A stretch of DNA of 64,000 nucleotides from Schmidtea nova (taxonomy: Eukaryota), in contig CM097883.1 of the NCBI GenBank assembly GCA_044892505.1, positions 262,818,001 through 262,882,000 of the forward strand, given 5' to 3'. Shown here one piece after another: positions 52,244 to 53,420 of this stretch (position 1 is its first letter; each line of letters opens with the position of its first letter). The position numbers were made by a program, and so were the translations under genes. Below the pieces are notes generated by a model. The model was not told the DNA's origin and made no database searches. It saw only the letters and a list, made by a program, of their open reading frames with translations.

Positions 52244-52902
52244 GGTGGATTGAGTGGGGTTGTGAGCGTGACTTGTATTGAATGTGTCAAAAAACTGGAC
52301 AAGGTATTTGTGAATTTTGAGAAAAATAATAAAAATAATTTTAAAATTTAGTATGAATAAAAATAATATAAATAAATATAATATATTATGTAATTTAATA
52401 TTATAAATAATACATATAAAATACCACTCGCTCGATAATTCCAAATAGCTGTTGCAATTGTTTTGAGAAATAGGCGCTTCCAGCTGCAACGCTGCTCCGT
52501 TAGTGGAACTGTGAATGACACAGGAATCGGAGCCGAGGTCGAGTTTACGCAACGGACAAGAATAACTAGCAGTTTTGAATTGAGGATAAACTTTACATTG
52601 CATGGTAAATCTTTGACCAATGACATATTGTTCAGGTAATGAGACGATGTTGACTGAGTATTCAACTGATTGCCTGTTGTAATTGACACTTTCACGCTTT
52701 CCTGTTTCTACTGATTGACAGAATGTAGTTTCTGAGGCTGGTTGAAATGTCGAGGCTTCCAATTCCATTGATGACCCGGTCTCAGTAGTTCCTTTAACAG
52801 CGCATTTATAAGAACCTGAATCATCTCGTCTCAATTGTTCAAAAGTGATGCTAGTGTTTGCGAATTTCGTAATGACGTTTGCCTCATATATCATATCAGG
52901 GT

Positions 52903-52913
52903 TTCTGACACCA
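52903..52913 (-). promoter_or_regulatory. Primer-binding site, tRNA-Leu-like
   Basis: TGGTGTCAGAA lies a few nt downstream of the 5' LTR end and is complementary to the ...UUCUGACACCA 3' end known for tRNA-Leu isoacceptors. Confidence 0.65.
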
Positions 52914-52916
52914 ATT

Positions 52917-53420
52917 TTAGTAGCTGCAAAAACAATTAATAAGACGAAAAAAAATACATTCAATAAAACAAATTGTTCTTTCTTAGCTGCAGATATATCA
53001 TCAGCTTTCACCGTTGAATTAATCTTCTTATGCTTCATGAAATAACTGTCTTTAATGCGCTCTGGAATATCAATGGTAGAAATATCTATCTTTGTGCTTG
53101 TAGTAATAACTGGGGTGATTGATTGTCTCATTCGCCTCTTGTGCTCACTGAATTCTTTCGTACGATTTGAGTTCTTTTTAATTGCAACATTCGATTGGTA
53201 ACTTTGTGGTTTGCGTTGGGTTTTAATTTGTGCAGCTTCCATTTTTTGTAAATTGCTTCTTGCTTGTTGTTTTTTGAAAAAGGTGAAAAAAGTCCATTTT
53301 TTTTGTGATTAAAACAAATCGATTTTTCTTTTTATAAATAATTAAATAAATGATTTTAATATATAAATATTGATATTTAATTAAATAATATAATAACATA
53401 TAAATAACGGAGGCACTACA
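52917..53420 (-). repeat. 5' LTR
   Basis: TGTAGTG...CAGCTACTA termini. TATA-like TATAAAAAG near 53336. Confidence 0.9.

Follow-up and report, generated by a model that had tools for sequence, protein, structure and literature searches.

The question raised by this locus is why the gag frame of an LTR retrotransposon should remain open far upstream of Gag, from inside its 5′ LTR and across the primer binding site (PBS), and what the immunoglobulin (Ig)-like and hydrophobic sequences encoded on the way represent. A sequence-only reading of the window (the whole stretch of 64,000 nucleotides of Schmidtea nova DNA that was analysed) had offered two answers: a fragment of a host Ig superfamily (IgSF) gene captured in the leader, or a glyco-Gag-like precursor with its Ig loop outside.

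The element and its open frame

The element is a Ty3/gypsy LTR retrotransposon of 6.3 kb, running from 53420 down to 47110 on the minus strand and recognised by its paired LTRs, PBS and polypurine tract and by the protease-reverse transcriptase-RNase H-integrase (PR-RT-RH-IN) order of pol, in which the protease is called from its DTG motif alone; the surrounding DNA is 26% GC. Its main features are:

53312..53317, minus strand: TTGTTT motif, a candidate promoter or poly(A) element
53223..53297, minus strand: out-of-frame ATG with an upstream ORF (uORF) of 24 codons, overlapping the main ATG in the window copy
52916..53420, minus strand: 5′ LTR of about 505 nt, beginning TGTAG, its 3′ end approximate and defined by the PBS
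52903..52913, minus strand: PBS, encoding GVRN in frame
52016..52210, minus strand: degenerate ubiquitin-like domain (UBL), aa 345-409, ending RVLGG
51113..52015, minus strand: Gag, with a DUF7041 region, two CX2HX9CX3C motifs, and an A-AAA-AAC slippery site and stop at its end
47653..51078, minus strand: pol, with the DTG protease motif, reverse transcriptase (RT), RNase H and integrase
47603..47612, minus strand: polypurine-tract-like GGGGGCTAT, common to relatives
47110..47602, minus strand: 3′ LTR, with the same eL6 pieces as the 5′ LTR (see below), lacking the counterpart of base 53168 and the last ~10 nt

The two CX2HX9CX3C (CHCC) motifs of Gag are at aa 648 and 680, and the PBS is one which we take to fit tRNA-Leu, not tRNA-Trp. 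A search for a target-site duplication around the element found none, the 3′ LTR end being damaged. One low-depth contig from the X1 set of sequencing contigs links 47093 to 53423 via 26 other letters, and is perhaps an empty-site allele. At the end of gag, pol follows A-AAA-AAC in the −1 frame in 6/6 relatives; in the window copy (51113-50910) the −1 frame ends in a stop at 50910 and the other frame encodes pol, which suggests that the gag-pol link of this copy is broken or works differently.

From the ATG at 53242, 178 nt into the 5′ LTR, the ORF runs through the PBS to the gag stop (53242..51113, minus strand), 709 codons without a stop, the stop-to-stop frame opening at 53308. This confirms the earlier observation that the gag frame is extended by 333 codons over the PBS and an AT-rich stretch, and the peptides quoted at the time are all present in the conceptual translation. 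The remaining two frames across 53420-52244 contain 31 and 14 stops, and segment-wise shuffling of the first 999 nt gave no stop-free sequence in 20,000 (mean 22.5 stops). Most of this openness is accounted for by captured coding DNA, which makes up about 73% of the leader; the non-captured stretches on their own are stop-free in 8% (52966-52877) and 1.2% (52426-52244) of shuffles. An out-of-frame ATG is located 55 nt upstream of the main ATG, with family contigs differing in length directly behind it, and Met334 directly precedes the UBL; together these mean that Gag of the window copy could start internally.

The LTR copies (53420-52927 vs 47602-47110) differ solely in base 53168, which is missing from the 3′ copy, as the sequence-only reading had noticed; as a worry for the frame this deletion has little weight, since it is absent from the 12 of 19 family indels considered. 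We also considered 40 of 89 family variants, 36 of them inside the ORF; none of these 36 creates a stop (about one expected, not significant). The X1 indels considered that are present at at least 2% are all upstream of the main ATG, as are all six gaps in an X4 contig over 52958-53369, which form one patch and are not independent. There are 1,487 X1 contigs on the 1.2-kb leader, and X1-X3 contigs cover the leader like pol, which indicates that its cargo belongs to a large family, depth being no copy number; with the same restriction, a roughly twofold rise of summed X1 depth from 52927 is a weak mark of the 5′ LTR edge.

The neighbourhood contains further mobile DNA and host-like sequence. 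A 5′ fragment of HSP70 (39370-39600, minus strand; Pfam E 3e-14) immediately precedes, on the same strand, a decayed gypsy RNase H/integrase region (37045-38716) and is possibly another capture by an LTR element; a decayed actin fragment (Pfam E 2e-14) is located at 22782-23177 (minus strand). A Polinton-like gene set occupies 57969-64000 (minus strand), with an adenovirus-type protease (Pfam E 2e-5) and capsid-like and polymerase-like frames labelled by eye without a Pfam match. Exons resembling insulin-like peptides at 8602-10103, 26050-26470 and 56330-56850 (signal peptide and CCCKSC motif, by eye) adjoin N blocks, and a short element with inverted repeats recurs beside them; one such exon scanned against Pfam gave no match. 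A frameshifted hAT-like transposase is located at 43517-45317 (plus strand; by eye, without a Pfam match), and a weak, Penelope-like GIY-YIG match at 27677-28315 (plus strand).

A ubiquitin-like domain before Gag

The UBL of the window is too degenerate for direct recognition: alone it had no Pfam match, BLAST against the related protein P0018 missed it, and phmmer against the PDB gave only a chance match to a leucine-rich repeat. Its AlphaFold model has the beta-grasp order (pLDDT 83-95), and Foldseek matched it to ISG15, ubiquitin and SUMO (probability 1.0, best E 4.8e-3, TM to target 0.64-0.69). An HMM of 22 relatives from outside its subgroup scored it at 27.1 bits, compared to at most 9.5 bits for 300 shuffles. 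The domain before Gag is therefore assigned a beta-grasp fold, as modelled, and near-true ubiquitin (Pfam E 1e-19 to 1e-24) occupies this position in P0018, L002, L004, L008 and L019.

The Gly-Gly at the end of the UBL is invariant in 26/26 aligned Gags which are 21-50% identical. The residue following it (P1′) is A, G, S, T, V or M in 25/31 and Pro in 0/31, while small residues make up 88/279 at the next nine positions (p 1.5e-7 for the contrast, an overstatement because the sequences are related). Proline after Gly-Gly is described as blocking hydrolase cleavage in the part of the viral ubiquitin literature consulted (PMC5381556), and a C-terminal Gly-Gly without a following Pro is what a cleavable UBL is expected to have. 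In the clade, the invariant Gly-Gly and the P1′ pattern indirectly support the view that a deubiquitinase frees Gag at the UBL.

The best 150 phmmer matches were screened for the Gly-Gly motif before Gag, which was present in 28 besides the query; a PBS-encoded peptide, in any of the three frames, was found in 10 of these 28. In the Gag tree, 35 sequences with double CHCC and UBL form their own branch (support 100/100), and 13 sequences scored as being without UBL may be called from later starts. A UBL with terminal GG, together with a long leader, is also present in P0099, whose Gag has a single CHCC and falls outside the main branch; this may be an independent gain.

Scanning metagenomes yielded 21 related loci, 11 of which share the same PBS of 11-12 nt; among viral contigs, 0 of 88 pattern matches were relatives. 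Nine loci have PBS and UBL ordered on one contig (the other twelve comprise ten without a PBS match and L005 and L012, which are circularly permuted), and eight of the nine are stop-free from an LTR ATG to the UBL. In these eight the ATG is 94-324 nt before the PBS, which is read in all three phases, and the leaders are 68-81% AT, with a shuffle chance of 0.03 to <0.0002 each. They form one subclade of about seven families (L003 and L010 are 89% alike, and L010 is P0015); L003 and L010 each have a second open frame as well. The same LTR ORF is present in L019, where the leader contains a single frame break, and L002 has a stop later in gag. In 9/10 clade LTRs TTGTTT is found 50-75 nt before the in-frame ATG, with AT content dropping behind it. 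No Met is present between PBS and UBL in 3/8 loci and in 9/15 other proteins (6/12 clusters), which would consequently need the LTR ATG; in L004 and L007 the next in-frame ATG does not come before residue 75-81 of Gag. The layout of LTR-started frame, leader, UBL with Gly-Gly and Gag is, as read from these sequences, clade-wide, something which the sequence-only reading did not mention.

Most loci (L002-L019) share the motif G(G/A)TAA(A/G)TT, located 15-40 nt behind the PBS at the start of the AT-rich leader, and this is a candidate cis-element. A conserved leader intron was considered and rejected, as the motif is often not a GT donor and the GT..AG tract of the window is 130 nt.

Host-derived pieces in the leader

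Four stretches of the leader match host proteins, two of them inside the LTR:

53108..53242, minus strand: eL6 piece 1, aa 1-45, starting at the in-frame ATG inside the LTR (phmmer against the PDB)
52967..53110, minus strand: eL6 piece 2, aa 45-92, fused in frame to piece 1
52730..52876, minus strand: Ig piece 1, aa 123-171, C-terminal half of the domain, D/E-F-G strands
52463..52696, minus strand: Ig piece 2, aa 183-260, from which 16 residues are missing in frame

Residues 1-92 are from ribosomal protein eL6, with Pfam Ribosomal_L6e above cut-off and PDB eL6 chains matching at E 4e-11. The joint at residue 45 skips about 45 eL6 residues (117 to 163 of the Xenopus chain), which we take to be the KOW/SH3-like core. 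Both LTRs contain these pieces, which are basic in charge and had been overlooked before; no additional eL6 piece was found in the other LTR reading frames.

With regard to the Ig-like sequence, Pfam V-set matches 52370-52930 (E 9.6e-7, 29.4 bits, cut-off 26), the match being confined to the E-F-G strands. Word-based searches with the Ig region (389-1241 aa and 30-388 aa) gave no match; phmmer then found P0030 and P0085, intact single-Ig proteins which each align twice to the leader (E 1e-10 to 7e-18), residues 131-171 of piece 1 being 59% identical to P0030 76-116. Ig clusters at 0.92-0.94 in the ESM Atlas are a lead only. Neither Ig piece is complete: piece 1 is without the A-C strands, and the loss in piece 2 extends from the C to the E strands and includes the position of the conserved core Trp, so that neither combines a B-strand Cys with the C-strand Trp and F-strand Cys of the same domain. 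Half an Ig domain and a second one lacking 16 core residues make a folded ectodomain unlikely, and the structure model is not folded (pLDDT 34, a weak test with a shallow alignment of 3 sequences); the Ig region is probably not a folded ectodomain.

A multi-copy relative of the Ig sequence is represented by an X4 contig of 245 nt (depth 294, compared to ~25 for the element's own contigs), in which the B-strand piece precedes the E-F piece, as in a natural Ig domain; the contig is about 82% alike, with 7/14 differences synonymous. The Ig piece of the element is about 84% identical to its multi-copy relative, and X1 holds a similar contig. Several contigs depart from the element at 52876-52879 as loose ends or joints, and low-depth X1 contigs extend back 285 nt (95 codons) from there; this is likely to be the 5′ capture junction of the Ig piece. 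The V-set match, the alignments to two intact Ig proteins and the relative in natural order support, at the sequence level, the idea that a fragment of a host IgSF gene was captured, with the source known from pieces, not as a whole donor.

Other members of the clade carry other cargo. P0004, P0152 and P0156 share one body behind three wholly different LTR-coded N-termini, all in frame, and differing host scraps are found on differing branches of the tree: HSP90 in P0008 (E 8e-10), histone H2A in P0010 and P0157 (with and without a 5-residue loss), Arp8 in P0019 (E 1e-3), and 5′-nucleotidase in P0016 and P0171, where it is behind the PBS like the Ig of the window. P0008, P0010, P0016 and P0019 are known as proteins, and a PBS-like peptide suggests the position relative to the LTR. 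The leaders of the eight open loci had no Pfam match to a host gene, and P0020 had no match in the PDB; the open loci without recognisable cargo suggest that cargo is optional, the constants being open frame and UBL. In-frame repeats were seen in other clade leaders. Two weak candidates were not counted as captures: a CSL4 match in P0029 (E 0.02) and, in L014, a HEAT piece resembling SCC3 (Pfam E 9e-6), for which there was no PDB support and no PBS was found. L014 (135-4046) also has an open frame of 850 residues before UBL-Gag, with an Ig-like stretch by eye, and could be a chimeric contig.

Proposed use of the leader and comparison with known systems

We consider it fairly probable that translation begins in the LTR, that host deubiquitinases free Gag, and that the leader need only stay in frame and gathers pieces of mRNA. 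One continuous frame from LTR to Gag is present in the window copy and in relatives. The RNA would start upstream of 53242, near TTGTTT, and ribosomes would scan to the LTR ATG; a host hydrolase would cut after GG, by analogy with bovine viral diarrhoea virus (BVDV), and since this cut sets the N-terminus of Gag whatever precedes it, the leader would be free in length and content. Selection would preserve the frame of the leader and not its sequence, template switching during reverse transcription would add host mRNA pieces of which those in frame survive, and these would decay through in-frame deletions and duplications. The in-frame internal losses in both captured genes of the window element, together with the in-frame repeats in other leaders, fit such survival of in-frame pieces. 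The Ig and hydrophobic stretches would be passengers, with no working surface protein. A bolder version, which we regard as rather unlikely, is that the lineage has ceded the N-terminus of Gag to host deubiquitinases, so that LTR and leader have become an exchangeable cassette which is translated and present in high copy number, the cargo itself being selected (piRNA self-mimicry or decoy leader) and the whole forming a standing exon-shuffling device.

Common X1 variants bear on several of the alternatives. In the Ig part 5/8 are synonymous (expected 0.28, p 0.046 uncorrected), a faint sign of constraint on the protein; the counts are 1/6 for the eL6/LTR part, 0/3 for the AT tract, 11/16 for pol and 6/14 for gag. 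The absence of a synonymous excess in the eL6 and AT-rich parts would fit a role at the RNA level, in which Gag starts internally at Met334, immediately before the UBL, the open frame protects against nonsense-mediated decay, and the host pieces would function as RNA, be it as translation or export signals or as look-alikes which blunt piRNA silencing. The identified scraps are mostly from housekeeping genes, as this would suit, yet the invariant GG with its P1′ pattern is left unexplained and many relatives are without a Met between PBS and UBL, and we judge such a role, its signal and look-alike variants included, to be unlikely.

The glyco-Gag-like precursor, in which two membrane passes would expose a functional Ig loop outside the cell while UBL-Gag stays in the cytosol, depends on two hydrophobic runs flanking the Ig pieces:

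52922..52972, minus strand: hydrophobic run 1, aa 91-107, in the T-rich LTR tail, KD19 (Kyte-Doolittle) up to 2.5
52295..52426, minus strand: AT tract of 88% AT with hydrophobic run 2, aa 285-309

Each run is in the top 2-3% of its own stop-free shuffles: for run 1, 21% of open shuffles reach KD 1.8 and 2.6% the observed value, while for run 2 57% reach KD 1.8, and are thus hydrophobic anyway, and 2% the observed 2.9. Hydrophobic runs are in part a product of T-rich DNA, a caution raised from the start. The AT tract is also intron-like (GT..AG, 130 nt, length not a multiple of 3), and its variants among those considered are 0/5 synonymous. A moderately hydrophobic stretch follows the PBS in many relatives of the group (by eye), and the slight synonymous excess in the Ig part could be added in favour; however, a KD19 window of at least 1.8 is present in 4/15 other long leaders (P0040 excluded), so the runs are not conserved, the Ig of the window was in none of those examined, and the clade leaders have no conserved membrane anchor of the glyco-Gag kind. 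With both Ig pieces incomplete and no fold predicted for them (the weak test above), the precursor does not hold up well, and we now regard it as very unlikely.

Similarly improbable is that, in a clade where the leader is generally disposable, the window family keeps its pieces for a protein effect of their own, such as a decoy or nucleolar or membrane targeting before cleavage. In favour, a large family has fixed these pieces, its leader being covered like pol in X1-X3, the eL6 pieces are basic and the Ig part has its 5/8 synonymous variants; against this stand the 1/6 for eL6, the core deletions in both eL6 and Ig, and cargo which varies between sister elements. Least probable of all is that recent coding captures, which make ~73% of the leader stop-free on their own account, sit untranslated in the gag frame by chance, given that 8/9 relatives hold AT-rich leaders open without recognisable cargo and that the Ig piece, at ~84% identity to its multi-copy relative, is not a new capture.

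LTRs and leaders are normally non-coding, and gene capture normally costs an element its autonomy. If the preferred reading of an LTR-started, deubiquitinase-released Gag is correct, a ubiquitin cut site in front of Gag would account for the in-frame uptake of host sequence with gag and pol retained, and would make a retroelement depend on host ubiquitin in a new way. The capture of genes by LTR elements, a viral ubiquitin cut site, a gag start in the LTR and the Ubl of Burro are each known singly; their combination was not found, and no description of an LTR-started leader with ubiquitin-Gag was found in the parts of open-access papers covered. In yeast Ty1, gag begins within the LTR and reads across the PBS, and glyco-Gag of murine leukaemia virus (MLV) is an N-extended, membrane-bound Gag; unlike the window element both are without a ubiquitin unit and host cargo, and glyco-Gag has the conserved membrane anchor which the window clade lacks. 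Silent substitutions in the PBS of Ty1 imply that it is coding (PMC6844567).

The Gag motif points to the neighbourhood of CsRn1; the tree was of Gag sequences. As far as the accessible description of the CsRn1 clade goes (PMC2582038), it shares with the window element the CX2HX9CX3C Gag and PR-RT-RH-IN, and with the relatives of the element a gag/pol overlap by −1 frameshift; its primer site is of the tRNA-Trp type and the word ubiquitin is absent from that description, whereas the window element has two CHCC motifs, a UBL before Gag, an LTR-started leader and a PBS which would be of another type. Partial, sense-strand host pieces in an LTR element, here eL6 and Ig in frame, are also what was described for LTR-mediated retroposition (Tan et al. 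2016, PMC5131818), where, in the sections consulted, template switching to co-packaged mRNA joins partial host mRNAs, sometimes of two genes and often sense and in frame, into LTR elements. In those cases the host piece takes the place of internal ORFs and the resulting element is non-autonomous, whereas the window element retains gag and pol and has its pieces in LTR and leader, joined to Gag through the UBL. The planarian giant gypsy elements Burro/GYPSM1 likewise have ubiquitin/SUMO-like and host-like domains in their polyprotein, with Gag N-terminal, the Ubl internal in an ORF of 5,000 aa and no LTR-coded leader in the part of the description seen (PMC6431247). A likeness in mechanism is seen with cytopathogenic BVDV, in which, according to the excerpts used (PMC5381556), captured ubiquitin in the polyprotein lets host hydrolases free the next protein; there it concerns sporadic RNA-virus recombinants with demonstrated cleavage, whereas here it would be a fixed trait of a retroelement lineage with predicted cleavage.
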